IMG/VR virus record: IMGVR_UViG_3300027804_000038
Location: 192,001 to 256,000 of that record
Reading direction: 5' to 3' (one strand)
Origin: a virus
Lineage: Duplodnaviria; Caudoviricetes
Length of the DNA stretch: 64,000 bases
Positions within the stretch are counted from its first letter, which is position 1; the number at the start of each line of letters is the position of its first letter. The translations under genes were made by a program, and so were the position numbers. The notes under the pieces were generated by a model that had not been told where the DNA came from, did not search any database, and saw only the letters and a list, made by a program, of their open reading frames with translations. Positions 31,574-45,791 of this stretch are shown one piece after another.

Positions 31574-31925
31574 TGATACTACCAATTTCTTGCCGTAAGT
31601 TTGTAAAAGATTTGACACTTATAGGTGATGAAAGATACTCGGTAGTTAAATCAAAAAGTTCTTGTTTTATTTAGAAGATTGAAAATACTTCACGGGTGGC
31701 TCCCTTAATAGTTAAGGCTGACCTTAAACATCCACTCTAAAGTATACAGGGGGCGAAAGTGAAAAAAAATATTAATTTATTTGACAGATTGAAAAAAATG
31801 TCGTAAGTTTGTAAAAGATTTGAGATTAAGGTTCACAAAGTGGTAAAACGATGAAAGTTTCCAAATCTCAAAAAAGTTCACAAATAACTTGACAAATAGA
31901 AATAAATGTCGTAAATTTGTAAAAC
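31574..31925 (+). promoter_or_regulatory. three tandem host-type promoters, TTGA(C/T)A..GYCGTAARTTTGTAAAA
   Basis: TAnnTTTG at 31596, 31804 and 31912, each preceded by TTGA(C/T)A. Confidence 0.75.
31694..31763 (+). ncRNA. pseudoknotted RNA motif, copy 1
   Basis: shares GCTCCCTTAATAG, a CTGA-loop hairpin and AGGGGGCGAA with 45215-45290. Confidence 0.55.
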
Positions 31926-31945
31926 AATTCGGAAATGTCCGAAAC

Positions 31946-31954
31946 GTTCTTTGA
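31946..31954 (+). promoter_or_regulatory. boxA-like antitermination site
   Basis: GTTCTTTGA preceded by a small hairpin, downstream of promoter. Confidence 0.6.
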
Positions 31955-31964
31955 AAAAATAGAT

Positions 31965-32857
31965 TATCCATTCTCTGAGTAAGTCGTATTCCCGCCTTCG
32001 TGTGACGAATATGAGCACTGAAAAGAGATAAACGATAATGGGCCGTGTATGGTCCTTAAATAAACTACGAAAGTAGGATAAAGTGGTCTCCCCCGTGTTG
32101 AGGAGGCTGCGGTTTGAAACCCCGTAAGGGGAATTGAACTCAAGTACACAAGTGGGATATCACCACACCTTTAGTACCGAGGGTAACACTGTAGGGAAAG
32201 TGGTAGGGTGACATGGCAATGTGGATTGTCAAGTTGAGTTCGGAAGAACAATAAGAATAACCCATAGGAATCAAGTAAGAAGTATAGTCATCCAACTATA
32301 TAATTGCGGATTCCAATATGATAGAATACTTAAAACCGAAAGGTAAGGTAGAGAACGAGTGGTGTCGCTACTACCCCTAAGGATGACCTACCAAGGTCGC
32401 TTTCTGAAGTAATCTAAAAATATGGAGGTGGGGACACTTCACGGAGTAGTTTAGTATTCTGTCACTCAAAAGGAGACGGAGCTTACGGTGGACCACTACT
32501 CTGACACATCCACGACACAAAACCTATTAATTTCACTGTTAATGAAAATTTAATACTAAAAATTACAAGGAAAAGTGTCCATCAGGTTTGAGTGAAAGGT
32601 GACTACATAGTAATGAGCCGTTCATTGCACACAAAGACCCCAAGTCAATGTGTATTGTTAAGAAAGACCTTTAATCCCGCAAGGACGAACTGGGGTGGCA
32701 ACCTCGGAAAGAGTTAAGTACTGATAGAGTAATTCAGACCTCAAGGAGTGGTATACCTAAAAGACCGTCACTGAGAAATACTTCTCAAAAGGAAGTGGAT
32801 ACGAAGGGAACTAATAATCCTTCAAAAGATTCTCAATCAAAGCTGTAATCTCAGGCT
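31965..32857 (+). ncRNA. large ornate ncRNA, GOLLD-like
   Basis: about 890 nt, GC-elevated, ORF-free, many GNRA hairpins, CTGAG/CTCAG terminal helix, abuts tRNA-Met; family not confirmed. Confidence 0.65.
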
Positions 32858-32880
32858 TCGTTTAACTTAAAATATTATAT

Positions 32881-32952
32881 TGTGGGATAGAGCAGAGGTA
32901 GCTCGAAAGGCTCATAACCTTTAGGTCGGGGGTTCGAATCCCTCTCCCGCTA
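32881..32952 (+). tRNA. tRNA-Met(CAT), initiator-like (1:72 mismatch)
   Basis: cloverleaf, loop CTCATAA. Confidence 0.9.
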
Positions 32953-33063
32953 CTAAATAGAAGTAGGTTTCACCTGTCGCAGGCGACGTAAAGTAAGAAT
33001 CACAACTTGACTGGTCGTAACCTTCTGTAGTGGTTAATGTGAACACTATAGACTATTAAAAAC

Positions 33064-33087
33064 AAGGTGGGGTAACCCACCTTTTTT
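33064..33087 (+). terminator. intrinsic terminator
   Basis: AAGGTGGG/CCCACCTT plus T run. Confidence 0.75.
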
Positions 33088-33153
33088 AATTATTAAAAAT
33101 AACTTAAAATAATTTTTGATTTAAAAAATATTTATTAATATAATTTAACTACT

Positions 33154-33417
33154 ATGGAAGTTAAAATTGGAGTTATTGAAACACATTACTATAAGGGAGA
33201 AAGAGAGTTACAAATTGTTGATTTGGAAAAGTTTCCAATTATTAAACAATTTATAGAAGTAAACCCAAAAGCAACCGAAGAAGATTTATTAAAATATTTG
33301 AAGAAAATAAAAGATAAAGATTTTCAGAGGTTTATAAACGAATTATCATGGAATGAGATTAAAAAAGAGGACTTTACTAAAAGTAAAACTGAATTAATTG
33401 TAAAATTAGAAAAATAA
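33154..33417 (+). CDS. hypothetical protein
   Basis: ORF track. Confidence 0.6.
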   Translation: MEVKIGVIETHYYKGERELQIVDLEKFPIIKQFIEVNPKATEEDLLKYLKKIKDKDFQRFINELSWNEIKKEDFTKSKTELIVKLEK

Positions 33418-33453
33418 TTTTGTAAATTAAAAATTTTGTAGTAAATTTGTCCT

Positions 33454-33711
33454 ATGAAAATTATAACACTTAATATCATCCATCCCGAATACGGTAAAAT
33501 AGTTGAAGAAACATTCCAAGATGCAACACAGATTAAATTGTTTCTTAGAATGGTACAAGATAGTATTGACACAAACACTTCTTTTAATCATTACAATATC
33601 ACAGATACTTTAATTCAAATACCATCCAAAGTATTGAAAGAATGTTTAATTTTTACTAATAAAAAACAAGTCAGCTACACTGAACAAGTATTATCCAAAG
33701 TAGCGGTTTAA
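33454..33711 (+). CDS. hypothetical protein
   Basis: ORF track; TAAATTTG-N4-ATG. Confidence 0.65.
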   Translation: MKIITLNIIHPEYGKIVEETFQDATQIKLFLRMVQDSIDTNTSFNHYNITDTLIQIPSKVLKECLIFTNKKQVSYTEQVLSKVAV

Positions 33712-33827
33712 AAATCTTTATGTGAACCATAAAGTGGTGGACCACAATCCAAGTCGATTGGCCTAAAAAGAGAACACATGTTCTCTTTTTTTATTTTATT
33801 ATCTATTTATTATAAAAAATATTAATC

Positions 33828-34139
33828 ATGACTAGATACGTTTTTACTGAAAAACAACTTGAAAAAATAAAAGAAGATTTAAACAGACCTGAAATAACAG
33901 AAGGTAAAGATGGTAATTATATGTCAAAACAACAATTATTTATAATTGCAACTTTAGCATATAAAATGTGGGAGATAATGGAAGATGATGAAGAACTAGA
34001 TGATTGGATGGAATCCAAAATTGCTCAAGCTGAGCAATCTATAACATCAGTCGTCAAGGCTTACATGTATGATGAAATAACTGATGATATGAAAGGTATG
34101 GAAACATTAAATTACAATGAACTTGTAATCGGAAAATGA
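33828..34139 (+). CDS. late protein with leader
   Basis: YMSKQQL...ELDDWMESKIAQA module; TATTTAT upstream. Confidence 0.65.
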   Translation: MTRYVFTEKQLEKIKEDLNRPEITEGKDGNYMSKQQLFIIATLAYKMWEIMEDDEELDDWMESKIAQAEQSITSVVKAYMYDEITDDMKGMETLNYNELVIGK

Positions 34140-34999
34140 AAAAAATAATTAAAGAAAACGAAAAGAAATTTTATTTATATAACCCAATCCCTATTGTAAA
34201 ACAAGAGGCATCTGAGGTTATAAAAAGAATACTTAACGCTCATAACATATCATTTCAGTTTGGTGAAACTGTGAATTTAAATGAATTGGACACAGTTAAT
34301 AAAATGAGAATGAGAGACTATATTAATCGTGTTATAAAGTACAAAGAAGTTAGAGGACACGCAATTGAAGGATTAATGGTTGGACTTTTTGACGGACAAT
34401 TTAATAAAGAACAAATGGGTTCATGGGATTATATGGTCAGACAAGGTACCGTCGAACAAAAATATATTGAAGATATTAATGAAAGCCCATCAATAGGAGC
34501 TTTTAAAAATATTATTGATGGTTTACCACAAAAAGATTCAGATGAAATTAGGAATATACTTTCAAAATACGAAAGTCAAAATATTTTTTTAATCAATGAC
34601 CCAGAACTTGAAAAATATAAAAGGAATATATTAGAGACAATGTTAACTGATATAATTTGTGTCACCACAAAAAGTTTAACAAAATTAGTTAATTATTATT
34701 TTACAAAAGAAGATTTTATAAGCTATGCAATTGATGCAAAAAATATTGCTGCACCTAAAAATAAAAATTCATTACAACTTAGAATAAAATCTGGATTATT
34801 AACGTCTAAAGCAAATAAGTTTGAAATTATTATACCATCCATAAGTCAGAAAGAATATGATGACTATATGAAGGAAGATTCTGAGGAAATAAGAATCTCA
34901 AAAATATTTGGGCCATATTATAATAAAATTAGACCAGATATTCTTAAATGGATTAAGAATAATAAAGATTTATTTAAAGATTCGGTAAATCAATTATGA
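34136..34999 (+). CDS. possible PD-(D/E)xK nuclease-fold protein
   Basis: GHAIEGL...WDY...VEQK spacing. Confidence 0.5.
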   Translation: MKKIIKENEKKFYLYNPIPIVKQEASEVIKRILNAHNISFQFGETVNLNELDTVNKMRMRDYINRVIKYKEVRGHAIEGLMVGLFDGQFNKEQMGSWDYMVRQGTVEQKYIEDINESPSIGAFKNIIDGLPQKDSDEIRNILSKYESQNIFLINDPELEKYKRNILETMLTDIICVTTKSLTKLVNYYFTKEDFISYAIDAKNIAAPKNKNSLQLRIKSGLLTSKANKFEIIIPSISQKEYDDYMKEDSEEIRISKIFGPYYNKIRPDILKWIKNNKDLFKDSVNQL

Positions 35000-36024
35000 A
35001 AATAGTATTAAATGAAACACAATATAGTAAACTAATTACTGAAGATTTAGGAGTATCTAGGGCTTCTATTATTTATTCTAATTTAATTTTACAAACGTTG
35101 GACCCTATTTTAAAAGATAAGATAGATAAGGGTAAAAATTTTGCAGATATAATTATTATTGGATTGAAAGATATTAAGGAAATTTATCAAAACAATTTTG
35201 ATGATTTTATAGAGTTACCGATAGAAGAAATTATTATTGAATTTACATTTAAAAAAGTTAAAAATATTAATAAGACTGATGTTAAATATCTTACAGGTGG
35301 TGCGGCGTATCAAATAGAGAAGGGTAGAGATGCTAGAACTAAGATACAAAAACCTTCTCTATCCCTACCAAAAAAAGTACTTGAGGAAATTCCTGAAACT
35401 ATGACTGCCTATTATGAGTTTGGTGTGATTATAAGTCAACATTATACAAATGATGATTATTCTAGTTTACTATTAGATTTACGTGATACTATTGTACATG
35501 AATCTAACCATATTTTAGAGTTTTATAAAAAAAGAAAAGTGTATAACACAGCATTATCCTTTGCAGGTTCAAAAAACAAAAATATACCAAAACCAATATA
35601 TGACATTTGGAATGAATTTTTATGGTTTTTATATTTCTCTGAACCATATGAGATGAACGCTATGGCACAAGAATCTTATAGTAAAATACTAAGGATGACA
35701 TTTGATGAGTTTAAAAAAACAAAATATTGGATTTATTCTGAGAAAATGAAAAATTTTGATGCTAATAAACTTTACGAAGAATTATTAAGAAAAATTAATG
35801 AATACAATCCTGATACTGAAAAAGTCTTTTTAAATAGTATTTTGAAATGGTTTAAACAAGATTATATTTCAGGTTCTAAAGATTATGGTATTGAACCAAA
35901 CAAAGATGTTGTAAATTCTAAAGACATTATAACACTTATGAAAAAATTTGAGCCAAGAATTAAGAAATCTGGAGACAGACTTCAAAAAAGATTTATGAGA
36001 TTATATTCTTTGGAATCTGTTTAA
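34996..36024 (+). CDS. zincin-like metalloprotease with leader
   Basis: VHESNH (HExxH) plus downstream EMNA. Confidence 0.65.
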   Translation: MKIVLNETQYSKLITEDLGVSRASIIYSNLILQTLDPILKDKIDKGKNFADIIIIGLKDIKEIYQNNFDDFIELPIEEIIIEFTFKKVKNINKTDVKYLTGGAAYQIEKGRDARTKIQKPSLSLPKKVLEEIPETMTAYYEFGVIISQHYTNDDYSSLLLDLRDTIVHESNHILEFYKKRKVYNTALSFAGSKNKNIPKPIYDIWNEFLWFLYFSEPYEMNAMAQESYSKILRMTFDEFKKTKYWIYSEKMKNFDANKLYEELLRKINEYNPDTEKVFLNSILKWFKQDYISGSKDYGIEPNKDVVNSKDIITLMKKFEPRIKKSGDRLQKRFMRLYSLESV

Positions 36025-36061
36025 ATTTTGTTTTTTAATGTTATTTTTATATCTTTGTATT

Positions 36062-36757
36062 ATGAAAATAACATTTATTTCCGATACACACAACAAACAT
36101 AAGCAAGTCACTAGTTTATTACCTGGTGGGGATTTAATCATACATGCTGGAGATATATCATCCATGGGGTATATCCACGAAGTTCAACAATTCTGTAAAT
36201 GGTTTGAAGGATTAGATAACTATACAACTAAAGTTTTCATTGCTGGAAACCATGATTTTGGTTTTCAGGATATTCCTAAAGAGATTAAAGAAATTGTTGA
36301 TTTTTATGATGGAGTTAATTATTTACAAGACGATTTAATACTACTTGGTGATAACTATAGTGAAATGGTTAAAATTTATGGTACTCCATGGCAACCTGAA
36401 TTCCATAATTGGGCATTTAATTTACCAAGAAATGGATGGGAACTTGAACAAAAATGGAATGATATCCCGATAAATACGGATATATTAATTACTCACGGAC
36501 CAGCCCAAGGATATTTGGACACCTCAGGACCACCTTGGAATGAGCCCTTGTTAGGTTGCGAATTACTAGTTAAGAGAATTAAAGAAATAAAACCAAAAAT
36601 TCACGTTTGTGGTCATATTCACGGAGGTTATGGTTATGTCTTTGATGGTGATACTCACTTCATTAATGCATCTGTACTAAATGAAAAATATGAATTTGTT
36701 AACAAACCACTTACAGTTGAGTGGGACCCTGTGACAAATGAACTTGATTTTCTATAA
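36062..36757 (+). CDS. calcineurin-like metallophosphoesterase
   Basis: SDTH, HAGD, AGNHD, THGP and GHIH motifs. Confidence 0.9.
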   Translation: MKITFISDTHNKHKQVTSLLPGGDLIIHAGDISSMGYIHEVQQFCKWFEGLDNYTTKVFIAGNHDFGFQDIPKEIKEIVDFYDGVNYLQDDLILLGDNYSEMVKIYGTPWQPEFHNWAFNLPRNGWELEQKWNDIPINTDILITHGPAQGYLDTSGPPWNEPLLGCELLVKRIKEIKPKIHVCGHIHGGYGYVFDGDTHFINASVLNEKYEFVNKPLTVEWDPVTNELDFL

Positions 36758-36870
36758 AAAACTGACATAATGTCAGTTTTTTTATTTTGGTACGAATTTT
36801 AACAATTTGGCACACGGAACTTGATTCCATTAAAATAAACTTTTATATTTAAAAAAAATTATCAAAATTT

Positions 36871-38733
36871 ATGGGAAAAATAATAGGTATTGACTTGGGA
36901 ACTACAAATTCTTGCGTAGCGGTTATGGAAGGTAGTGACCCTGTAGTAATTACAAACAGTGAAGGAAAAAGAACCACCCCTTCAATTGTCGCATTTGCTA
37001 ATGGTGGTGAAAGGAAAGTTGGTGACCCTGCTAAACGACAGTCGGTTACTAACCCTGATAAAACAGTGTATTCAATTAAAAGATTTATGGGAACTAGCTT
37101 TGAAGAAAGTAAAAAAGAAGCTGGCAGAGTCCCATACAAAATTATAAATGGTAACAATACACCTAAAGTTGAAATTGATAAAAGAAATTACTCACCACAA
37201 GAAATTTCGGCAATAGTACTCCAAAAGATGAAACAAACTGCTGAGGACTATCTTGGACAAGAAGTAACTGAGGCTGTAATTACGGTACCTGCATATTTTA
37301 ATGACGCTCAAAGACAAGCGACAAAAGAAGCTGGTGAGATTGCAGGACTTACAGTAAGAAGAATCATAAACGAACCAACTGCCGCGGCTCTTGCGTATGG
37401 TTTAGATAAGAAATCTAAAGATATGAAAGTTGTAGTATTTGACTGTGGTGGTGGTACTCATGATGTATCCGTACTTGAACTTGGAGACGGTGTATTTGAA
37501 GTACTCTCAACTGATGGAGACACTCATCTTGGTGGTGACGACTTTGACCAAGCAATTATTGATTGGTTAGTTATGGAATTTAAAGATGAAAATGGATTGG
37601 ATTTAAAACAAGACCCAATGGCACTTCAAAGACTTAGAGAAGGAGCTGAAAAGGCAAAAATTGAACTTTCATCATCACCGTCAACTGAAATTAATTTACC
37701 ATATATCATGCCAGTTGATGGAATACCAAAACATTTAGTACGTACTCTATCTCGAGCTAAATTTGAACAATTAGTTGACGAATTAGTTAAAAGAACAATT
37801 AAACCATGTGAGTCGGCTTTAAAAAATGCAGGACTTAAAGTTTCTGAAATTGATGAAATTATTTTAGTTGGAGGTACAACAAGAATTCCTGTTATTCAGG
37901 ATGCGGTTAAGAAGTTCTTTGGAAAAGAACCGTCAAAAGGGGTTAACCCTGATGAAGTAGTCGCTTTAGGGGCGGCTATCCAAGGAGGAGTTTTAGCTGG
38001 TGATGTTAAAGATGTGCTACTTTTAGATGTCACACCACTATCACTTGGTATTGAAACAATGGGTGGGGTTTTTACAAAGTTGATTGAGGCAAACACAACT
38101 ATCCCAACCAAAAAGTCACAAGTATTCTCAACCGCTGTAGATAATCAACCATCAGTTGAAATCCATGTATTACAGGGTGAAAGAGCTATGGCTAAAGACA
38201 ACAGAACCATTGGTCGTTTCCATCTTGACGGATTACCACCAGCAATGAGAGGTATTCCACAGATTGAGGTAACATTTGATATTGATGCTAACGGTATTAT
38301 TAATGTGTCGGCATTGGATAAAGGAACCAATAAACAACAAAATATTCGAATCGAATCTTCTTCAGGACTTTCAAAAGAAGAAATTGAAAAAATGAAAAAA
38401 GAGGCTGAAATGAATGCGGAATCTGATAAGAAAATTAAAGAAGAGACTGAAACAATTAACAAGGCAGATTCAGTAATTTTCCAAACCGAGAAGGCTTTAA
38501 AAGATTTAGAGGATAAAATTGGTGACGAAGATAAAAATAGAGTGATGGTTGCTTTGGAAGAATTAAAAACCGCACATCAGAATAGAGACGTAGAAAAGAT
38601 TAATTCTTCTATTGATAATGTTAATAACATCTTTCAAGGAATAAGTCAGAATATATATCAACAGATGTCAGACATTGTGAACGAAGATAAAGATGTTGAG
38701 GTAACCGATGTTGATTTTGAAGAAGTTAAGTAA
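36871..38733 (+). CDS. dnaK: DnaK/Hsp70
   Basis: [25 protein letters not shown]-like and NPDEVVA motifs; full length. Confidence 0.98.
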
Positions 38734-38740
38734 TTAATTA

Positions 38741-38766
38741 AAAACCCATCTTCGGATGGGTTTTTT
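38741..38766 (+). terminator. intrinsic terminator
   Basis: AAAACCCATC-TTCG-GATGGGTTTT. Confidence 0.85.
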
Positions 38767-38790
38767 ATTTATATTTGTAAAAAAAATAAA

Positions 38791-39360
38791 ATGAAGGTAA
38801 TATTTTTAGACCACGATGGGGTTATTTGCTTATCAAATAACTGGGGGTCACGATTTAAGAAACAAAAGAAATATAGAAAAAAATTGAGTCAATCAGTAAT
38901 GACAATGCCTCTTGATGCTCGTTTTGATAACTTTGATAAGAAAGCGATTAAGGTGTTAAATCAAATCTTGGAACAGACTGGTGCTGAAATCGTTGTTTCT
39001 TCCGATTGGAGGATTTGGTGTTCAGTTGAGGAAATGGGTGATTATTACGAAAGTCATGGAATTATCAAACGTCCAATTGATTTTACAGGTAATGTTATTG
39101 ATGAATCAAAAGTTACATGGCACCGAAATTGGGATTTGGAAGGAACAAGGAGTTTGGAAATCCAAGGTTGGTTAAAAGAACACCCTGAGGTAACACAATG
39201 GGTAGCTATTGATGATTTGAATATGGGTAAAAAAGGTCTACACTACTCAACGGAATTTGAACACGAATGGGGGTTAGATAATTTTGTACATACTCCTCTT
39301 AGAAATGAAGGTATAAAACAAGTTGGTATTAAAGAAAAAATTTTATCATTTTTAAAATAA
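38791..39360 (+). CDS. HAD-family phosphatase (Swiss-army-knife RNA-repair-like HAD)
   Basis: FLDHDGV, IVVSSDWR and WVAIDD motifs. Confidence 0.8.
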   Translation: MKVIFLDHDGVICLSNNWGSRFKKQKKYRKKLSQSVMTMPLDARFDNFDKKAIKVLNQILEQTGAEIVVSSDWRIWCSVEEMGDYYESHGIIKRPIDFTGNVIDESKVTWHRNWDLEGTRSLEIQGWLKEHPEVTQWVAIDDLNMGKKGLHYSTEFEHEWGLDNFVHTPLRNEGIKQVGIKEKILSFLK

Positions 39361-39433
39361 AAACTTAAAAATATTGACAAATAAATAAAATTTTAATACT
39401 TTTGTTAAACAGTTATATATTTAATTAAAAACA

Positions 39434-39547
39434 ATGAAACAGAACTCGATACATAACATAAGTAATCTCCCGATGAATGTGGGCCAAGCTTGGTTTGCGA
39501 TTAAAGGGCAAGATTGCCGTTGTTTAAGGGTTCTTAATGAGATGTAA
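39434..39547 (+). CDS. 37-aa leader peptide
   Basis: MKQNSIHNISNLPMNVGQAWFAIKGQDCRCLRVLNEM; follows TTGACA/TACTTTTG promoter. Confidence 0.6.
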   Translation: MKQNSIHNISNLPMNVGQAWFAIKGQDCRCLRVLNEM

Positions 39548-39609
39548 GCGTATCATCAAATATATAAAAAAAGAACCCTGAACAATTAAAAAGTTCGGGG
39601 TTTTTTTTT
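39527..39609 (+). terminator. attenuator (terminator with competing antiterminator)
   Basis: 10-bp stem 39574-39602 plus T9; AGGGTTCTT (39527-35) is perfectly complementary to AAGAACCCT (39571-79). Confidence 0.75.
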
Positions 39610-39623
39610 GATGTTACAAAACA

Positions 39624-39638
39624 GTTCTTTGACATATT
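39624..39638 (+). promoter_or_regulatory. boxA-like site
   Basis: GTTCTTTGACATATT just before first tRNA. Confidence 0.65.
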
Positions 39639-39647
39639 GGTGAATTT

Positions 39648-39689
39648 CGGGATGTAGCTCAGTTGGCTTAGAGTACGTGCTTTGGGAGC
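39648..39689 (+). pseudogene. 5' part of disrupted tRNA-Pro(TGG)
   Basis: CGGGATG acceptor strand, D arm, anticodon loop TTTGGGA, then break. Confidence 0.85.
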
Positions 39690-39730
39690 TCAAAACATGT
39701 TTTTTCGACTTTCATGATATTTATTATTAA

Positions 39731-40288
39731 ATGAATATTATGGAAATAACTAAATATGTTTTGATAGAAGTTGTAAACACTTCTAAAAGTAAATCAGAAA
39801 TACTTAAAAAGCTTGAATTGAGTGATAATGGTAGAAATAGAAATCATTTAAATAAATTAATTTCTGAATTTGGTGTTAGTTTAGATATTTTGAAAAAAAA
39901 TAAAAGAATTAATACTAAATTTATTGAAAAAGAATGCCCTGTTTGTGGTAAAATCTTTGAAACTAAAAAAACAGATAGAGAAAAAACAACTTGTTCTTAT
40001 AGTTGTTCGAACAGTTATTTTAGAAGCGGAGAAAATAATCCAAATTGGAAAGATGATAGTTACAGAACAACATGTTTTTTATATCATGAGAAGAAATGCG
40101 TAGTGTGTGGTGAAGATAAAATAATTGACGTTCATCATTATGATGAAAACAAAAAAAATAATAACAAAGAAAATTTAATTCCTCTTTGCCCAACTCATCA
40201 CATGTATTGGCACTCAAGATATAAAAATTTAATTGAAAAAACTGTTAACAACTATAGAGATGATTTCATTAAACGAGTAATGGGCTAA
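39731..40288 (+). mobile_element. HNH homing endonuclease inserted in tRNA-Pro
   Basis: CPVC/CSYSC zinc motif, CVVC...DVHH...NLIPLCPTHH. Confidence 0.85.
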
Positions 40289-40348
40289 TTGGTAAGCCGC
40301 CATATTTGGGATATGGACATCATGTGGGTTCGAGTCCCACTTATTCGA
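40274..40348 (+). tRNA. tRNA-Pro(TGG), intact, nested in the insertion
   Basis: full cloverleaf; overlaps the last 15 nt of the HNH ORF. Confidence 0.9.
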
Positions 40349-40349
40349 C

Positions 40350-40376
40350 ACGCAGGTTCGAGTCCTGTCATCCCGA
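40350..40376 (+). pseudogene. 3' part of disrupted tRNA-Pro
   Basis: T arm plus CATCCCG, complementary to 39648-39654. Confidence 0.85.
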
Positions 40377-40424
40377 CGATTAAAATTATTTTACATTTTA
40401 ATCAAAATTGAATATATTTGTACT

Positions 40425-40841
40425 ATGAAACATAGTATGGAAAATGGCGATAAGTCTAGAAATGGGAATCAATTAGAGTCCTATTTCATGGAAAAAACTG
40501 GATTAAAAAAAATTCAGAAGAAAGAAAAGCCTTTTTTTACTAATAGCCATGGTAAAAAACAAATTATTGATTTTGATTTTTATGTTAAAATTAATGATGA
40601 CGATGTTTACATTGATTTAACAACAACTTATAGAAGTGATAGGTTAAAACAAAAAGCATATAATGCTTTAATGTATAAATCAAAGATTAACAAACCTTGT
40701 AAATTTTATATGGGTGTTGGTAAATTAGTTGAACATGGAAAGAAAAAAAATCCTGTGTTAATTGAAGGTATTGATGGAGTATTAACAGTTGAGGATTTAG
40801 TACAAATGATTTCTAAAAGGTCAGATACTCAAGTGGTTTAA
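40425..40841 (+). CDS. PD-(D/E)xK-like endonuclease
   Basis: GNQLE...IIDFDFY...YIDLT; own promoter; overlaps tRNA-Cys. Confidence 0.55.
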   Translation: MKHSMENGDKSRNGNQLESYFMEKTGLKKIQKKEKPFFTNSHGKKQIIDFDFYVKINDDDVYIDLTTTYRSDRLKQKAYNALMYKSKINKPCKFYMGVGKLVEHGKKKNPVLIEGIDGVLTVEDLVQMISKRSDTQVV

Positions 40842-40892
40842 GGGGCCTGTCTGCAAAATAGGTATTCGTCGGTTCGAATCCGACTCTGACCT
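40819..40892 (+). tRNA. tRNA-Cys(GCA)
   Basis: cloverleaf, loop CTGCAAA. Confidence 0.9.
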
Positions 40893-40968
40893 CAAAAAAA
40901 AAATAAAAAATTTCTTTGAAATTAAAAAAATAGACGTATCTTTGTACTCACAAATAAACAATAAAAAT

Positions 40969-41718
40969 ATGATTACACTCCAAGAACTCCAATCAGTAGT
41001 ACCTTCAGTATTCAACACTCAAAAAGCTCAGAAGCTTTCTGACAAGTACACAGTTGTTCCAACCATTGACGTAGTAAATCAATTTATGCAAGCAGGGTGG
41101 GAAGTGTCAAGTGCAAAACAAGTAGGGTCAGGTGTATACGGCAAACACTCAGTTCGTCTCCGTAACTCTGAACTCCCAAAGGTAGGTGATTCTCTACTTG
41201 AGGCTATCATCACTAACTCTCACGATGGTCGTACCAAACTCCAAGTAGGAGCAGGGTTGTACCGATTGGTGTGTTCTAATGGTCTTGTAGTACCAATGCA
41301 AGAAATGGTTAACATTAACCAGCGTCACATGAACATTCAGATGGATGAAGTGAATCAAATCACAGAGAAGTTCATTCAGATATCACCAATCATTGAACGT
41401 TCAGTTAATAAAATGATTGACGTTAAAATGGATACTGAAAAGAAAATTGATTTTGTAACCAAGGCGGTTGGAATTCGTTGGAAAAATACCGAAGACATCT
41501 CAAGTATGACTCTTGAGACGATTATCGAACCTCTTCGTGGTGATGATAACAACGATACACTTTGGCATACTTTCAATGTAGTACAGGAGAAGTTGATTAG
41601 AGGTGGATTTGTAAAATCACAAGGTAAAAATGTGAGAACAGTCAAAGGGATTACTTCCCTAAATATGGACACAATGATTAATACAAAATTGTGGGAATTG
41701 GCTGAAACATACATTTAA
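40969..41718 (+). CDS. DUF932/DUF945 family protein
   Basis: SDKYTVVPT, NSHDG...AGLYRLVCSNGL, TLWHTFNVVQE, LWELAE. Confidence 0.85.
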   Translation: MITLQELQSVVPSVFNTQKAQKLSDKYTVVPTIDVVNQFMQAGWEVSSAKQVGSGVYGKHSVRLRNSELPKVGDSLLEAIITNSHDGRTKLQVGAGLYRLVCSNGLVVPMQEMVNINQRHMNIQMDEVNQITEKFIQISPIIERSVNKMIDVKMDTEKKIDFVTKAVGIRWKNTEDISSMTLETIIEPLRGDDNNDTLWHTFNVVQEKLIRGGFVKSQGKNVRTVKGITSLNMDTMINTKLWELAETYI

Positions 41719-41738
41719 TCTTTATGATTGATGTTTAC

Positions 41739-41767
41739 AAATGGTACCTCAAAAAGGTACCATTTTT
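41739..41767 (+). terminator. terminator-like hairpin inside the tRNA array
   Basis: AAATGGTACC/GGTACCATTT plus T run. Confidence 0.6.
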
Positions 41768-41771
41768 ATTT

Positions 41772-41843
41772 GGTGATGTAGCTCAGAGGTGGAGCATCTG
41801 ACTGTTAATCAGAGGGTCGGGATTTCGAAATTCCCCATCACCG
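41772..41843 (+). tRNA. tRNA-Asn(GTT)
   Basis: cloverleaf. Confidence 0.9.
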
Positions 41844-41854
41844 CAAAATTTAAT

Positions 41855-41930
41855 GACTTCGTAGCTCAGCTGGTTTTAGAGCATCGCACTTTTAATGCGA
41901 GGGTCATGGGTTCGAGTCCCATCGGGGTCA
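41855..41930 (+). tRNA. tRNA-Lys(TTT)
   Basis: cloverleaf. Confidence 0.92.
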
Positions 41931-41940
41931 CTTTTTATAC

Positions 41941-42024
41941 ACGTCAGTGGCTGAACGGCTTAGGCAACGGTCTCCAAAACCGTGAACATTATGTTCTACG
42001 TAGGTTCGAATCCTACCTGGCGTG
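41941..42024 (+). tRNA. tRNA-Trp(CCA) with long variable arm
   Basis: loop CTCCAAA; GAACATTATGTTC extra arm. Confidence 0.8.
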
Positions 42025-42031
42025 CTAATAT

Positions 42032-42106
42032 TCTCAGATAGCTCAGTTGGTTTAGAGCACTTGTCTGATACACAAGAGGTCGTGGGTTCGAGTCCCACTC
42101 TGAGAA
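42032..42106 (+). tRNA. tRNA-Ile(GAT)
   Basis: cloverleaf. Confidence 0.9.
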
Positions 42107-42115
42107 CTTAAAAAT

Positions 42116-42190
42116 GGGGGCGCATGTACCAAGGCTTGGCGAGAAACACTTGCAATGTTTCTGTGGAGGTTTCGATTATCTCCGTCTCCA
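42116..42190 (+). tRNA. tRNA-Ala(TGC)
   Basis: loop CTTGCAA, G3:U70 pair; irregular D arm. Confidence 0.8.
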
Positions 42191-42198
42191 CTAAATTC

Positions 42199-42271
42199 GC
42201 TCCAGTAACTCAGTGGTGAGAGTGTCACTCTTATAAGGTGAAAGTCGTCAGTTCAATTCTGACCTGGAGTA
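42199..42271 (+). tRNA. tRNA-Ile(TAT)
   Basis: cloverleaf, loop CTTATAA. Confidence 0.88.
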
Positions 42272-42277
42272 CTATAT

Positions 42278-42351
42278 GGCCCCTTAGCTCAGTGGTAGAG
42301 AGCGATTGTATTACAAACAATAGGTCGTGTGTTCGATTCACACAGGGGCTA
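42278..42351 (+). tRNA. tRNA-Val(TAC)
   Basis: cloverleaf. Confidence 0.88.
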
Positions 42352-42357
42352 CTCTAA

Positions 42358-42429
42358 CCCGATGTAATTCAGTGGTAGAATACTTGATTCATATCCAAGC
42401 AGTCGGTGGTTCAATTCCACCCATCGGGA
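42358..42429 (+). tRNA. tRNA with CAT anticodon (elongator Met or Ile2)
   Basis: cloverleaf, loop TTCATAT. Confidence 0.85.
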
Positions 42430-42484
42430 CAAAAAATATTTGGTGATACAATAATCTAATTGTATATTTGTACTTAAATTATAT

Positions 42485-42560
42485 GGGGTGATAGCGCAGG
42501 TGGTCAGTTCGCGTCGGTCTGAAAAACCGAAGATGTGTGGTTCAACTCCCACTCACCCCA
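42485..42560 (+). tRNA. tRNA-Phe(GAA)
   Basis: cloverleaf; own TATATTTG promoter at 42463. Confidence 0.88.
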
Positions 42561-42717
42561 CGAGGTCCTGAATTAACAGGACAACCCCCACCTCCGATAT
42601 GGCAGTCGGTCCGTTAATCCGATGAAGATGGGGTTTTTGAAAAGTGTCTCGGTAAGCTCTGACGAAAGTCAACTACGAGGTCTCGGTGGACAGAAGGCCT
42701 CTGATTCCACCCAAAAT

Positions 42718-42789
42718 GCGGGTATAGTATAATGGTTATTATGATAGCCTTCCAAGCCTTAGATGTCAGTTCGATTCTGACTACCCGCT
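42718..42789 (+). tRNA. tRNA-Gly(TCC)
   Basis: cloverleaf with weak anticodon stem. Confidence 0.82.
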
Positions 42790-42796
42790 CTTTTTT

Positions 42797-42873
42797 GGGA
42801 CATTAGTAGAGTTGGTCACAATGCCACCCTGTCACGGTGGAGGTCACGGGTTCGAATCCCGTATGTCCCGCCA
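42797..42873 (+). tRNA. tRNA-Asp(GTC)
   Basis: cloverleaf with encoded CCA. Confidence 0.92.
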
Positions 42874-42932
42874 AAAGAGGAACGACTCAGTGTAGGAGCC
42901 TCAGGGGACTGCAGCCCCACTACACTCTATAT

Positions 42933-43003
42933 TGTCCTGTAGTGAAATGGCATCACTCGACTTTTTGGCAGTCGCATTTCTGGTTCGAGTCCAGACGGGA
43001 TAA
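42933..43003 (+). tRNA. tRNA-Gln(TTG)
   Basis: cloverleaf. Confidence 0.88.
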
Positions 43004-43019
43004 CTAAAAAATTAAAACT

Positions 43020-43415
43020 ATGTTAAAAGAAAGAATCAATGCCGACTTTATGTCCGCATTTAAAAACAAGGAAACTGAAAAGAAAAACTTTTTGGGTGTG
43101 GTTAAGGGTGAGATTCAGAATGAGGAAGGTCGCTCTGGTGTTGCTAACGATGATGTGGTTGTTGCGATTTTGAGAAAGATGGAAAAATCTTTAACTCAAA
43201 CTGGAACACCTGAAGCATTAAAGGAATTGGAATATATCAAACCATATCTTCCATCTCAAATGGGTTCAGATAAAATCCGTGAAATTATCTCAAACTATAA
43301 AACCAATGGTCTAACCAATGTCGGTCAGATTATGGGTGAGTTCAACAAGAACTTCAAAGGTCAAGCAGATAACAAAATCGTATCAGAAATCGCAAAAGAA
43401 GTTTTGGCAGGTTAA
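43020..43415 (+). CDS. GatB/YqeY domain protein
   Basis: LKERINADFMSAFKNKE...YLPSQM...GQIMG...KGQAD pattern. Confidence 0.85.
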   Translation: MLKERINADFMSAFKNKETEKKNFLGVVKGEIQNEEGRSGVANDDVVVAILRKMEKSLTQTGTPEALKELEYIKPYLPSQMGSDKIREIISNYKTNGLTNVGQIMGEFNKNFKGQADNKIVSEIAKEVLAG

Positions 43416-43438
43416 AAAATCTGCCATACTTTTGTATT

Positions 43439-43861
43439 ATGGAAAAAGAATTTGTCACATATGAGATTGGTTTAGAACTCAAGAATCTTGGGTTTAACGA
43501 ACGTTGTTATGGATGTTTCAGTCATTTGGACAACAAGGAGTTATGGACAAGTAGGGTATACACCAACGGAGTATCTGAAAATATTGCGGCACCAATCTTC
43601 TCACAGGTATTCGGATGGTTTGAAGATAATTATTCATATTTTGTGGATATTAGAACTGACACCACACCAAATGAGATTTTGGGATTTGACTATACGATTA
43701 AGAGTTGGAAGTTTCCACCAATGTATTTTGATTTCTTCAATGATAAGAGAGAAGGAAACATTGAGGTCATCAAGAAGATGATTAAAATGGCGAATAAAGA
43801 AAAACAAAAGGAGGCTCTTATTGATTTAATTAATTTGGATAATGACGATAAAGATAAATAA
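43439..43861 (+). CDS. hypothetical protein
   Basis: ORF track; TACTTTTG-N4-ATG. Confidence 0.7.
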   Translation: MEKEFVTYEIGLELKNLGFNERCYGCFSHLDNKELWTSRVYTNGVSENIAAPIFSQVFGWFEDNYSYFVDIRTDTTPNEILGFDYTIKSWKFPPMYFDFFNDKREGNIEVIKKMIKMANKEKQKEALIDLINLDNDDKDK

Positions 43862-43862
43862 T

Positions 43863-44165
43863 ATGACACAGAAACAACAAGACGCAATTGATAATATAAT
43901 GGACAACTTCAAGTTTGAACAAGTCCGAAAAGTAATGGAACTATTGGATTGGGAATGGGCGGGAACTGAAGAAGGTGTTCCAACCATTCCTGAATTGAGA
44001 CGAGAAGCAAGACGACTATTAAAAATGTCGTTTGAAGAAAAAACAAACGTATCAACAGGTGGATTCCACGTAATGTACGAATCAAATGATGACGGAGAGT
44101 TTATTCAATTGATGTTTGCGGTTGAAGAATGGTATGAAGAAATAGAAGAATATTTGGAAGAATAA
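43863..44165 (+). CDS. hypothetical protein
   Basis: ORF track, internal ATG preferred. Confidence 0.65.
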   Translation: MTQKQQDAIDNIMDNFKFEQVRKVMELLDWEWAGTEEGVPTIPELRREARRLLKMSFEEKTNVSTGGFHVMYESNDDGEFIQLMFAVEEWYEEIEEYLEE

Positions 44166-44580
44166 GAAAGTTGTTATATCTTTGTTGAAGTTCTTTGAAA
44201 TTAGGAAATTAAAGTGTTTAACGGCAGATTTTGATATAAGTGTTAGAGAGGATAAAAATCTATGAAACTTATAAGACAATTAGGAAGAGTTATCTTTACG
44301 TTGGGAGCTAAAAGTGGAGATAATAAAGTATCTATAACCGTTAAACCTTTTAAAATATTGATAGTGGTTTTCCCCACTCAACGGATGTCGACAATCTAGA
44401 TTGGAATCGGAATTCATCACCATCAGCCGAGGCCTCGTAAAACTACGATTAAGCTGTTAAGATTGGGACGAGACGGGTATCCCAACACTGTCAACAATAT
44501 TGTGTTGTTCCCTTGAGAAAGGAAGATTGCGGAGATGAACAGTAAGCTCACAACACAGAGGACTTCTCATCCTCAAACAT

Positions 44581-44678
44581 AGTCAGGTGGCGGAATTGGC
44601 GCCAAAGTTAAGGTGTGTTAAGGCGTGACCCGTTGAGGACCATCCAATGACTTACAGGTTCGAATCCTGTCCTGACTT
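44581..44678 (+). ncRNA. tRNA-shell element (acceptor stem + T arm, no recognisable anticodon arm)
   Basis: AGTCAGG/CCTGACT, TGGCGGAA, ACAGG-TTCGAAT-CCTGT. Confidence 0.65.
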
Positions 44679-44693
44679 CTAAATTTAAAAGAT

Positions 44694-44918
44694 ATGAATA
44701 GAACACTTGAAGAAATTGTGAAAACACCAGAATTAACTGACGGTACTGAAGTCACATTCAGAGTTGTAAATGAAACTTTCAATGGTAAAATTGTAGGTAA
44801 ATCATCCGATGGATTGATGCCGTATTACATCGTTGAATGTACTGATGGGTCATTTCCAAATGAAATGTATAAGTATAAATTCTTATCTTTACCACTTAGT
44901 GAAATATTTGTTAAGTGA
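44694..44918 (+). CDS. hypothetical protein
   Basis: ORF track. Confidence 0.6.
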   Translation: MNRTLEEIVKTPELTDGTEVTFRVVNETFNGKIVGKSSDGLMPYYIVECTDGSFPNEMYKYKFLSLPLSEIFVK

Positions 44919-44925
44919 TAAAAAA

Positions 44926-45007
44926 TAGTCAGGTGGCGGAAATAGTATCTCTATAATATACTTGATGAGGTATGAGGTTGACTCAGTATTAGTTCCTATC
45001 CTGACTA
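44926..45007 (+). repeat. degenerate tRNA-shell element
   Basis: TAGTCAGGTGGCGGAA...CCTGACTA; no canonical T loop. Confidence 0.55.
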
Positions 45008-45009
45008 CA

Positions 45010-45208
45010 ATGAGTAAGAGGTACTCAGAGTCTTCGAATCAAGACTTAAAGAATGATTCCGCAGAATGTCTACGGCGTGAGTGGGACATCGTGGGATAAA
45101 GGGATAGACACATTCCCTCCCAGTAGTGTTGGATGTTTTTAACGGGGATGCCCAGCAGGTTTTTAAGAAATAGAAAACCGATATGACTACTCATTTGTAA
45201 TCTCAGGA
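45010..45208 (+). ncRNA. candidate ~200-nt structured RNA
   Basis: multiple helices; ends TGTAATCTCAGG like the GOLLD-like RNA. Confidence 0.5.
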
Positions 45209-45214
45209 TGGGGA

Positions 45215-45290
45215 AAGCAAGGGCTCCCTTAATAGCTGTGGCTGACCACGGGCGTTGCTTGTTCCGTTATATAGGGGGCGAAGACGGAAC
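45215..45290 (+). ncRNA. pseudoknotted RNA motif, copy 2
   Basis: covarying homolog of 31694-31763. Confidence 0.55.
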
Positions 45291-45332
45291 TTTTTAGTAA
45301 TTATTTATAGGTATTTATAAATAAAATAGAAT

Positions 45333-45791
45333 ATGAAAATTACTAAAATTGGAAAAAAAGGTTTGGAATTAATTAAATCTTTTGAAGGTTTAAAATTAAA
45401 ACCTTATTTGTGTGATGCGGGAGTGCCAACAATTGGTTTTGGAAATACTTTTTATGAAAATGGTAAAAAGGTCACATTAAATGACCAAGTGATTACTGAA
45501 CAAAGAGCAGTTGAATTACTTGAATATTCATTATTAAAGTTTGAACAATATGTTGATTCATATTGTCGTGATGATATAAACCAAAATCAATTCGATGCAT
45601 TAGTTAGTTTTTGTTATAATTTAGGACCTGTTAATTTAAAAAATAGTACTTTATTGAAAAAAGTTAATAAAAACCCTAATGATATAACAATTAGAAATGA
45701 GTTTATGAAGTGGAATAAAGCAGGCGGAAGAGCTTTGAAAGGATTAACTAAAAGAAGAACCGCTGAAGCTGATTTATACTTCAGTAAATAG
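45333..45791 (+). CDS. lysozyme (GH24) endolysin
   Basis: FEGLKLKPYLCDAGVPTIGFG, QFDALVSF.YNLG, GLTKRRTAEA. Confidence 0.95.
   Translation: MKITKIGKKGLELIKSFEGLKLKPYLCDAGVPTIGFGNTFYENGKKVTLNDQVITEQRAVELLEYSLLKFEQYVDSYCRDDINQNQFDALVSFCYNLGPVNLKNSTLLKKVNKNPNDITIRNEFMKWNKAGGRALKGLTKRRTAEADLYFSK

Follow-up and report, generated by a model that had tools for sequence, protein, structure and literature searches.

The window analysed here, 64 kb of a jumbo phage (bases 192,001-256,000 of the 293,850-bp IMG/VR virus record IMGVR_UViG_3300027804_000038), contains two copies of a compact pseudoknotted RNA element. Both are members of a large and uncatalogued family of independently folding RNAs of ~75-85 nucleotides (nt), found in environmental phages and in small genomes of the Candidate Phyla Radiation (CPR). 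An unrecognised pseudoknotted motif with covariation had been proposed in a preliminary description made from the letters of the window, and that proposal holds on both counts. No family in Rfam 15 (4227 models) lies over either copy at E<=10, and in an alignment of 49 non-redundant sequences (A1), with pairs counted for a four-helix structure, 98.6% of cells are paired against 86% in shuffles, the observed covariation score being reached by 0 of 500 shuffles. The role tentatively favoured for the element is that of an autonomous RNA product, which would act through its shape on a conserved partner, and not that of a regulator of the adjacent gene.

Fold and covariation of the element

Exact matches to a 12-mer (CTCCCTTAATAG) and a 15-mer (TATAYAGGGGGCGAA) in the window are confined to the two copies, and a covariance model (R1) run over the full 293,850-bp phage record finds these two copies only. 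Both are present where they had been described, with identical conserved blocks. Their parts, with helices numbered P1 to P4 and the closing stem of copy 2 called stem X, are as follows.

31689-31763, plus strand: copy 1, whole element, type A (closed by P1, with a P4 hairpin); R1 84.6 bits, E 1.6e-19
31689-31693, plus strand: copy 1, P1 5' strand TTCAC, partner GTGAA at 31759-31763; 5 bp, where most type A members have 7 bp
31694-31698, plus strand: copy 1, P2 5' strand GGGTG, partner CATCC at 31729-31733; A1 columns 7-11 with 43-47, 97% paired
31699-31705, plus strand: copy 1, pseudoknot 5' strand GCTCCCT, partner AGGGGGC at 31748-31754; inner 6 pairs invariant in 49/49 sequences
31706-31711, plus strand: copy 1, junction J, TAATAG; covariation links its final two bases to the opening two of the P3 loop
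31712-31727, plus strand: copy 1, P3 hairpin TTAAGG-CTGA-CCTTAA; 5/6 pairs show two-sided change
31734-31743, plus strand: copy 1, P4 mini-hairpin ACT-CTAA-AGT, at the same position as the variable P4 hairpin of type A homologs
31744-31758, plus strand: copy 1, ATAC-AGGGGGC-GAAA, the conserved linkers around the pseudoknot 3' strand; ATA, AGGGGG and G-AA invariant in A1
45215-45295, plus strand: copy 2, whole element, type B (no P1; stem X; T-run); R1 73.3 bits, E 1.4e-16
45215-45222, plus strand: copy 2, P2 5' strand AAGCAAGG, partner CGTTGCTT at 45253-45260, with one G.G mismatch (read from the sequence)
45223-45229, plus strand: copy 2, pseudoknot 5' strand GCTCCCT, partner AGGGGGC at 45273-45279
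45230-45251, plus strand: copy 2, junction TAATAG and P3 hairpin CTGTGG-CTGA-CCACGG
45261-45295, plus strand: copy 2, stem X, GTTCCGT (45261-45267) with ACGGAAC (45284-45290), enclosing TATAT-AGGGGGC-GAAG and followed by TTTTT (45291-45295); terminator-like

The 6-bp hairpins with a CTGA loop that had been reported to differ between the copies and yet to pair (TTAAGG/CCTTAA at 31712-31727, CTGTGG/CCACGG at 45236-45251) are recovered as P3, and the pairing of GCTCCCT with AGGGGGC does cross a second helix to form a pseudoknot. That second helix, P2, had been drawn correctly for one copy only: AAGCAA/TTGCTT of copy 2 stands, and is extended by a G.G mismatch and then a G-C pair (45215-45222 with 45253-45260), whereas GGGTGG/CCACTC of copy 1 is out of register with A1. 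The earlier account lacked the closing stems of both copies; that of copy 1 is TTCAC/GTGAA, and that of copy 2 is GTTCCGT/ACGGAAC with TTTTT behind it.

Covariation supports P1, P2, P3, stem X, the outer pair of the pseudoknot and a contact between the P3 loop and the junction; when partners in A1 were slid by 1-3 columns as a control, pairing fell to 32-60%. P2 encloses the pseudoknot 5' strand, a short junction (YAA..NG) and the P3 hairpin. Its first pair in A1 is GC in 17 sequences, AU in 13, CG in 9, GU in 5 and UA in 3, and it measures 5 bp in type A against 6-8 bp in type B. P3 shows two-sided changes in five of its six pairs in A1, and keeps a length of 6-7 bp and a 4-nt loop across the family. 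The pseudoknot (GCUCCCU/AGGGGGC, 7 bp) is without variation in its inner six pairs in A1 (CUCCCU/AGGGGG, one U.G among them), while the outer pair is GC in 40 sequences, GU in 5 and AU in 3; conserved linkers, AUAY and GAA, flank the pseudoknot 3' strand.

The contact between junction and loop comprises 2 bp, formed by the last two junction bases with the first two bases of the P3 loop. The pair between A1 columns 23 and 33 is AU in 28 sequences, GC in 19 and CG in 2, with no mismatch, and both pairs are formed in 202 of the 234 parsed family members; in a CPR member the normally constant G-C pair of this contact is replaced by A-U. Three forms of the junction occur, i.e. UAAUNG with the loop CNGA, CAA plus an extra covarying hairpin plus GUCG with the loop CGUA, and AGCUACG with the loop CGUA. 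Loop counts are led by CUGA (121), CGUA (40) and CCGA (39), with further variants besides. Given zero linker across a 6-bp stem and standard pseudoknot geometry, the contact may be sterically hard to make within one molecule, and may therefore form between molecules, in which case the RNA would be self-associating. Single-sequence folding is uninformative (z values of -1.8 and -0.1), as its nested-only algorithm takes either the pseudoknot or P2 and never both.

The family has two architectures. In type A, P1 (7 bp) is made by the bases immediately 5' of P2 with those that begin one base past GAA, and all 7 of its pairs show two-sided changes in 24 non-redundant type A members (alignment A2), although the percentage paired in A2 is partly by construction, its rows having been picked for possession of P1. 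In type B, P1 is missing and the segment following P2 pairs instead with the 3' tail to give stem X, which encloses AUAY-AGGGGGC-GAA. A near-identical relative of copy 2 (L048), in which 90 upstream bases are the same, has GACTCAG/CTGAGTC as stem X: the stem is swapped wherever change was possible and its pairing is perfect. The P2 sub-type of copy 2 is found in L048 and also in L063, L095 and L096. Stem X of copy 2 is omitted by the terminator scan because its loop is longer than 8 nt.

Carriers and genomic settings

A strict pattern, with the pseudoknot strands, TAATAG and the CTGA loop all fixed, matched 101 viral contigs. With free bases in the pseudoknot and the remaining conserved parts held constant, the pattern matched 78 contigs, and CUCCCU/AGGGGG was present in all except one chance match and one variant; the invariance of the pseudoknot is therefore natural and not a product of the chosen pattern. 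Conversely, with the pseudoknot fixed and the rest free, the junction included, matches were obtained in at least 119 viral contigs and also in at least 120 from metagenomes. Across 185,579 species genomes, pattern and covariance model together left 10 true matches, all in cellular metagenome-assembled genomes (MAGs) and mostly in CPR; about 7 of 17 matches to the loose pattern were due to chance and were removed by the covariance model. A blastn search of 50,697 deposited phage records with three family members returned only one weak match, to the uncultured 636-kb phage LR756504.

At least seven of the ten true genome matches are in Patescibacteria (CPR) with genomes of 0.7-0.8 Mb, in which the neighbours of the element are housekeeping genes, including those for ATP synthase beta, a CorC-type transporter and an epimerase, and the order tRNA-Val - element - tRNA-Phe is common to three lineages. 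Carriage in Patescibacteria is sporadic (2 of 151 sampled genomes). The same ~30 invariant bases are kept in phages and in these small genomes, which points to a conserved partner or to a self-contained fold. The copies in five CPR/Patescibacteria MAGs (L190, L191, L194, L196 and L341) are chromosomal and single, and lie beside tRNA-Thr or between tRNA-Val and tRNA-Phe. The record of L190 is labelled Gammaproteobacteria, a label that may be wrong, as the genome is CPR-sized and has the synteny of the Patescibacteria record L191.

With a covariance model built on A1, each of the other large phage records examined (10/10) was found to have exactly one copy; five of these records are 93-100% complete, at 269-319 kb. 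Cellular genomes likewise have exactly one (5/5). The element is single in these genomes despite dozens of tRNA genes and several boxA leaders in each.

The 245 unique loci of the family fall into 123 unrelated neighbourhood groups. All 134 tRNA or transfer-messenger RNA (tmRNA) genes within 300 nt of these loci are on the strand of the element, and none is on the opposite strand. Meanwhile, an all-against-all BLAST of 1,138 flanking open reading frames (ORFs) revealed no neighbour protein family that recurs across contexts. Such varied contexts argue against a classical riboswitch, and a riboswitch was rejected since no downstream gene recurs over the 123 groups and since stem X and the pseudoknot of copy 2 are mutually compatible, with no competing platform. 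More broadly, a putative aptamer for a metabolite or ion, whether riboswitch or small-molecule sponge, is a highly improbable reading. Dense invariant junction nucleotides combined with a pseudoknot do resemble small pseudoknot aptamers, and the 3' end of copy 2 and its sub-type is a stem and T-run that look like a terminator. However, the genes that follow belong to no consistent class, many copies are within tmRNA, between tRNAs or behind stop codons, no riboswitch model matched, and the compatibility of the two helices in copy 2 leaves no evident switch.

In at least 45 loci the element is in the leader of a phage tmRNA, with the order promoter - element - boxA - tmRNA, and in at least 20 loci it is inside the tmRNA itself, past the tag stop codon and helix 5, at the position of pseudoknot PK2 (homologs L027, L079, G002, G005, G006 and G008 among them); relaxed ARAGORN tmRNA calls gave false positives and are excluded from these counts. 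Nine of the 11 large phage records are tmRNA-positive, and all nine also carry the element. The present phage has a tmRNA of its own (G000:C1:49741-50133, 120.8 bits), which is more than 170 kb from both copies and lacks the element.

In tRNA arrays, P2 starts 0-4 nt past the upstream tRNA and stem X ends a few nt ahead of the next one. Around 25 copies start 4-6 nt past the stop codon of nrdA (large subunit of class I ribonucleotide reductase, C-terminus ...PFECEGCGS), and are followed by a separate terminator and then the baseplate genes gp25 and gp6; this arrangement is seen in T4-like environmental phages (L125:2898-5409, L150, L219 and about 20 more loci). A link to GOLLD RNA is also present: copy 1, L060 and L061 are in the GOLLD leader region, the element of L060 starts the GOLLD operon, and L095 also has GOLLD, although GOLLD is missing from four of five tested element-bearing genomes. 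Of the type A copies, 54 of 113 are just after a TAnnTTTG box, with P1 beginning ~6 nt past it, i.e. at about the start of transcription. About half of the family is outside leaders.

Many of these positions mark the ends or borders of RNAs: transcript starts whose 5' end is held in P1, the gap separating the nrdA stop codon from the terminator (the element begins 4-6 nt into it), the spaces within tRNA arrays, and the site of PK2 in tmRNA. They would suit an element that is a mechanically stable knot and nothing else, serving as a nuclease block, a folding insulator or structural filler at RNA ends, between RNA genes or in place of tmRNA PK2, and a G-C-rich pseudoknot between A-rich linkers is the type of fold that would form base triples. 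A knot of this kind is nevertheless an improbable explanation. A pure stabiliser would need no ~30 invariant bases, the U.G pair included, from phages to CPR; many RNA ends per genome, and not one, would be expected to carry it; and the leader copies are cut off the tmRNA by RNase P and hence give no protection to the mature RNA.

Possible roles and relation to known RNAs

The element occurs once per genome, shifts in position, stays on the sense strand, has paired ends and a constant core, and lacks a gene partner; it is therefore read, with some hesitation, as a candidate product in its own right. Its position shifts even between relatives, as in L086, where a type A element is ahead of the same conserved RNA that type B copy 2 follows in the window, and this too favours a product over a cis regulator. 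Under the proposed mechanism, the RNA would have a single source per genome, carried along in highly expressed transcripts that undergo processing (stable-RNA operons, tRNA arrays, tmRNA precursors and 3' untranslated regions), and would be set free or displayed as a compact knot with ends defined by RNase P, tRNA 3'-processing or its own promoter or terminator. The spacing in tRNA arrays bears on this step: with P2 0-4 nt after one tRNA and stem X just before the next, tRNA-processing enzymes would release the element with its ends paired. By virtue of its three-dimensional form, the knot would then act on a partner that different bacterial phyla have in common, most plausibly within the translation or stable-RNA machinery given the frequent physical link to tmRNA and tRNA; the repeated fusion or adjacency to tmRNA hints at the translation or ribosome-rescue apparatus in particular.

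Several points weigh against an RNA product. The present phage has two copies and is an exception to the one-copy rule, and nut or put sites and some phage ribozymes are likewise present once or twice per genome. The copies in tmRNA bodies, at the PK2 position, are not releasable as free RNAs unless the tmRNA is cut. The architecture classes come from a crude script, and its shuffled control stayed high because many of the sequences are related. Finally, type A is associated with promoters and boxA: in addition to the 54 copies at a TAnnTTTG box, 56 of 113 have boxA-like GTTCTTTGAA within 70-90 nt, in either order, against 1 in a reverse-complement control, an association that would equally fit a cis-acting leader element.

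A cis-acting role of this type would be antitermination through untranslated RNA operons or a nearby terminator, either put-like, on RNA polymerase itself, or nut/boxB-like, with a factor and boxA. Leader elements of this kind include boxB-boxA-boxC of rRNA operons, lambda nut and the put RNA of HK022, of which boxB and put are simple hairpins with no pseudoknot. The likeness extends beyond the promoter and boxA counts: the element can be promoter-proximal, beside boxA-like sequence and ahead of long untranslated RNA operons, as in copy 1, which is behind a promoter and boxA-like leader and ahead of the GOLLD operon; the nrdA-linked copies are just upstream of an intrinsic terminator, at a boundary of early and late genes; nut and put sites typically number one or two per genome; and RNA polymerase is conserved across phyla. 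Set against this, the element is pseudoknotted, half of the family is outside leaders, most boxA leaders are without it (the window alone has four exact boxA sites), at least 20 copies are in tmRNA bodies and many in the middle of tRNA arrays, the chromosomal copies of CPR are between housekeeping tRNA genes, and copy 2 has a terminator-like stem and T-run of its own. Antitermination is thus judged quite unlikely.

The other main alternative is catalysis. A putative new class of small self-cleaving ribozyme would cut its host transcript, in the way known for hammerhead, twister and theta in the tRNA arrays of phages, and would account for a compact core with ~30 invariant nt, a pseudoknot and conserved junctions, for natural open-stem variants (type A and type B, comparable to the types of hammerhead and twister) and for scattered, unrelated contexts like those of known phage ribozymes. 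Theta ribozymes of gut phages are HDV-like (hepatitis delta virus-like; Kienbeck et al. 2024, PMC10879173), and the element shares with them its presence in phages, its site directly after tRNA 3' ends, often within a few nt (PMC10879173), and the nested double-pseudoknot order of the HDV helices, in the element P2(a) - PK(b) - P3 hairpin - a' - P4 hairpin - b', with zero nucleotides between a' and P4.

Despite this equal helix order, membership of the HDV-like/theta class was rejected on four defining features. The catalytic cytosine of that class is at the first J4/2 position, where a C-to-U change inactivates (PMC10879173), whereas in the element the base that comes first behind P4 may be U, G, A or C, or may be missing, and no C is conserved there; its (N)AUAY linker ends, directly before AGGGGG, with C for most members, with U for copy 2 and the sub-type of copy 2, and with A for the CPR member L341. 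The hairpin of the element has 6-7 bp and a 4-nt loop, in contrast to the 3 bp and long L3 of HDV P3. The 2-bp contact of the element joins the loop to the junction 5' of P3, while HDV P1.1 joins L3 to J1/4. Lastly, HDV P1 has a fixed 6-7 bp with a conserved G.U first, and its equivalent in the element (P2) has 5-8 bp and an unconserved first pair, placing a 5'-end cut at no fixed distance from the core; this variable length weakens the idea of trimming an upstream tRNA in the manner of theta.

The same outcome was obtained for other ribozymes, in agreement with the by-eye judgement of the preliminary description that the motif fits no hammerhead, twister, pistol or HDV core: covariance-model scans gave no match and the feature tests failed. 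No Rfam ribozyme model matched at E<=10, the models for twister, twister-sister, pistol and hatchet included, on either copy. The element has CUGA and GAAA, phage contexts and stem-permuted types in common with hammerhead, but lacks a CUGANGA core or a three-way junction around it, CUGA being followed by the P3 3' strand and not by NGA; hammerhead was rejected because CUGA is only the P3 loop, which varies in step with the junction (CCGA, CGGA, CGUA, UGUA, UUGA). Self-cleavage would also split the tmRNAs that bear the element, in type A a cut would remove only the first ~7 nt of a leader that RNase P removes anyway, and 69 kb of flanks are without hammerhead, twister or HDV ribozymes. An invariant compact core of ~30 nt fits a ribozyme or a ligand-binding RNA alike, and on balance a ribozyme appears unlikely.

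Beyond ribozymes, the reading as an RNA product is compatible with the comparison to other structured RNAs. The pseudoknots PK2-PK4 of tmRNA (RF00023) have in common with the element the pseudoknot as such and, in at least 20 phage tmRNAs, the PK2 position; however, ordinary tmRNA pseudoknots are unconserved in sequence between lineages and never free-standing, whereas the element keeps the same ~30 bases and turns up elsewhere too: in tRNA arrays, behind nrdA, in the leaders of tmRNAs, and in genomes such as that of the present phage, where the tmRNA is without it. An integral tmRNA pseudoknot is ruled out for both copies of the window, with the phage tmRNA more than 170 kb away, and holds for some homologs. 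GOLLD, ROOL and other large phage RNAs of unknown function (PMC12286853) are comparable in their lake phages and tRNA neighbours, but the element is ten times smaller, forms no part of the GOLLD model and occurs in many genomes that lack GOLLD.

At the Rfam gathering score, only GOLLD and tRNAs were detected in the window, and nothing meaningful was found over the CPR member. A full-text literature search on strings of the conserved sequence returned unrelated primers only, and searches on phage tmRNA, structured RNAs and ribozymes turned up no account of the element. A catalogue of 10,006 candidate viral RNAs (PMC10690425) may include it, and a preprint reports a 'divergent hammerhead' cluster with CUGANGA/GAAA (10.64898/2026.10.21.760802) for which no sequence is given, so that it is not comparable.

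Compact, strongly conserved and pseudoknotted RNA classes with hundreds of members are often ribozymes, riboswitches or protein-regulating RNAs. It is possible, though doubtful at present, that the family is an unknown natural class of functional RNA common to phages and CPR, either a ribozyme with HDV-like order and another active site or a trans-acting knot that modulates a universal component of translation or ribosome rescue. If a trans-acting knot, it would account for phages fusing the element to their tmRNA or placing it beside the tmRNA. The carriers are uncultured phages of lakes and soil and minimal CPR genomes, and with its physical ties to tmRNA, tRNA arrays and GOLLD the element could offer insight into the handling or manipulation of stable-RNA processing and ribosome rescue by phages. 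It is small enough for direct biochemistry and structure work, and its natural type A and type B forms and three junction variants provide a ready set of constructs and compensatory mutants.

Surroundings of the two copies

The window contains at least 23 tRNA genes and a GOLLD RNA at 32442-32857 (Rfam match, 316.8 bits). The features closest to the two copies are the following.

31576-31667, plus strand: upstream of copy 1, a host-type promoter (TTG ... TAAGTTTG) and a boxA-like GTTCTTGTTT leader (read from the sequence)
31946-32857, plus strand: downstream of copy 1, boxA GTTCTTTGAA at 31946, then GOLLD at 32442-32857
45333-45791, plus strand: downstream of copy 2, a phage lysozyme gene 38 nt past the T-run (Pfam PF00959, E 4.8e-41)

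The promoter upstream of copy 1 is a putative one, read by analogy with the Bacteroidota TAnnTTTG consensus. The region 31576-33090 looks like a stable-RNA operon, with host-type promoters (TTG/TTGACA ... TAAnTTTG) near 31590, 31785 and 31889. A hairpin and the exact boxA GTTCTTTGAA at 31928-31955 are followed by GOLLD, the 5' half of which probably runs from near 31960. Past GOLLD are tRNA-Met (32881-32953), ~100 nt without assignment and a strong terminator (33064-33090). The four exact copies of the boxA-like GTTCTTTGAA in the window, at 31946, 44190, 54542 and 62374, are all on the plus strand, and the first three are ahead of clusters of non-coding RNA; this distribution suggests Nus-type antitermination of the untranslated operons of the phage.

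The region ahead of copy 2 (44166-45212) is ~1 kb of largely non-coding sequence with no Rfam assignment, and has a promoter (TATCTTTG) and boxA (44190) at its start. A segment of ~170 nt within it (44354-44530) is conserved with L086, where it is directly behind the type A element. Further on, two tRNA-like units with the same acceptor arms (44581-44678, 27 bits with the tRNA model, and 44927-45008) are on either side of a 74-aa ORF (44694-44918). The 12-mer TGTAATCTCAGG, which is the loop of the last GOLLD hairpin (32844-32855), recurs exactly in a hairpin just before copy 2 (45196-45207); there are 2 exact matches, and the chance expectation is 0.26 for matches with at most one mismatch. 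As judged from this shared sequence, the RNA upstream of copy 2 may have a terminal module in common with GOLLD. Downstream of copy 2, a tRNA array comes directly after the lysozyme gene (tRNA-Ser at 45789), and the endolysin gene is thus embedded among RNA genes.

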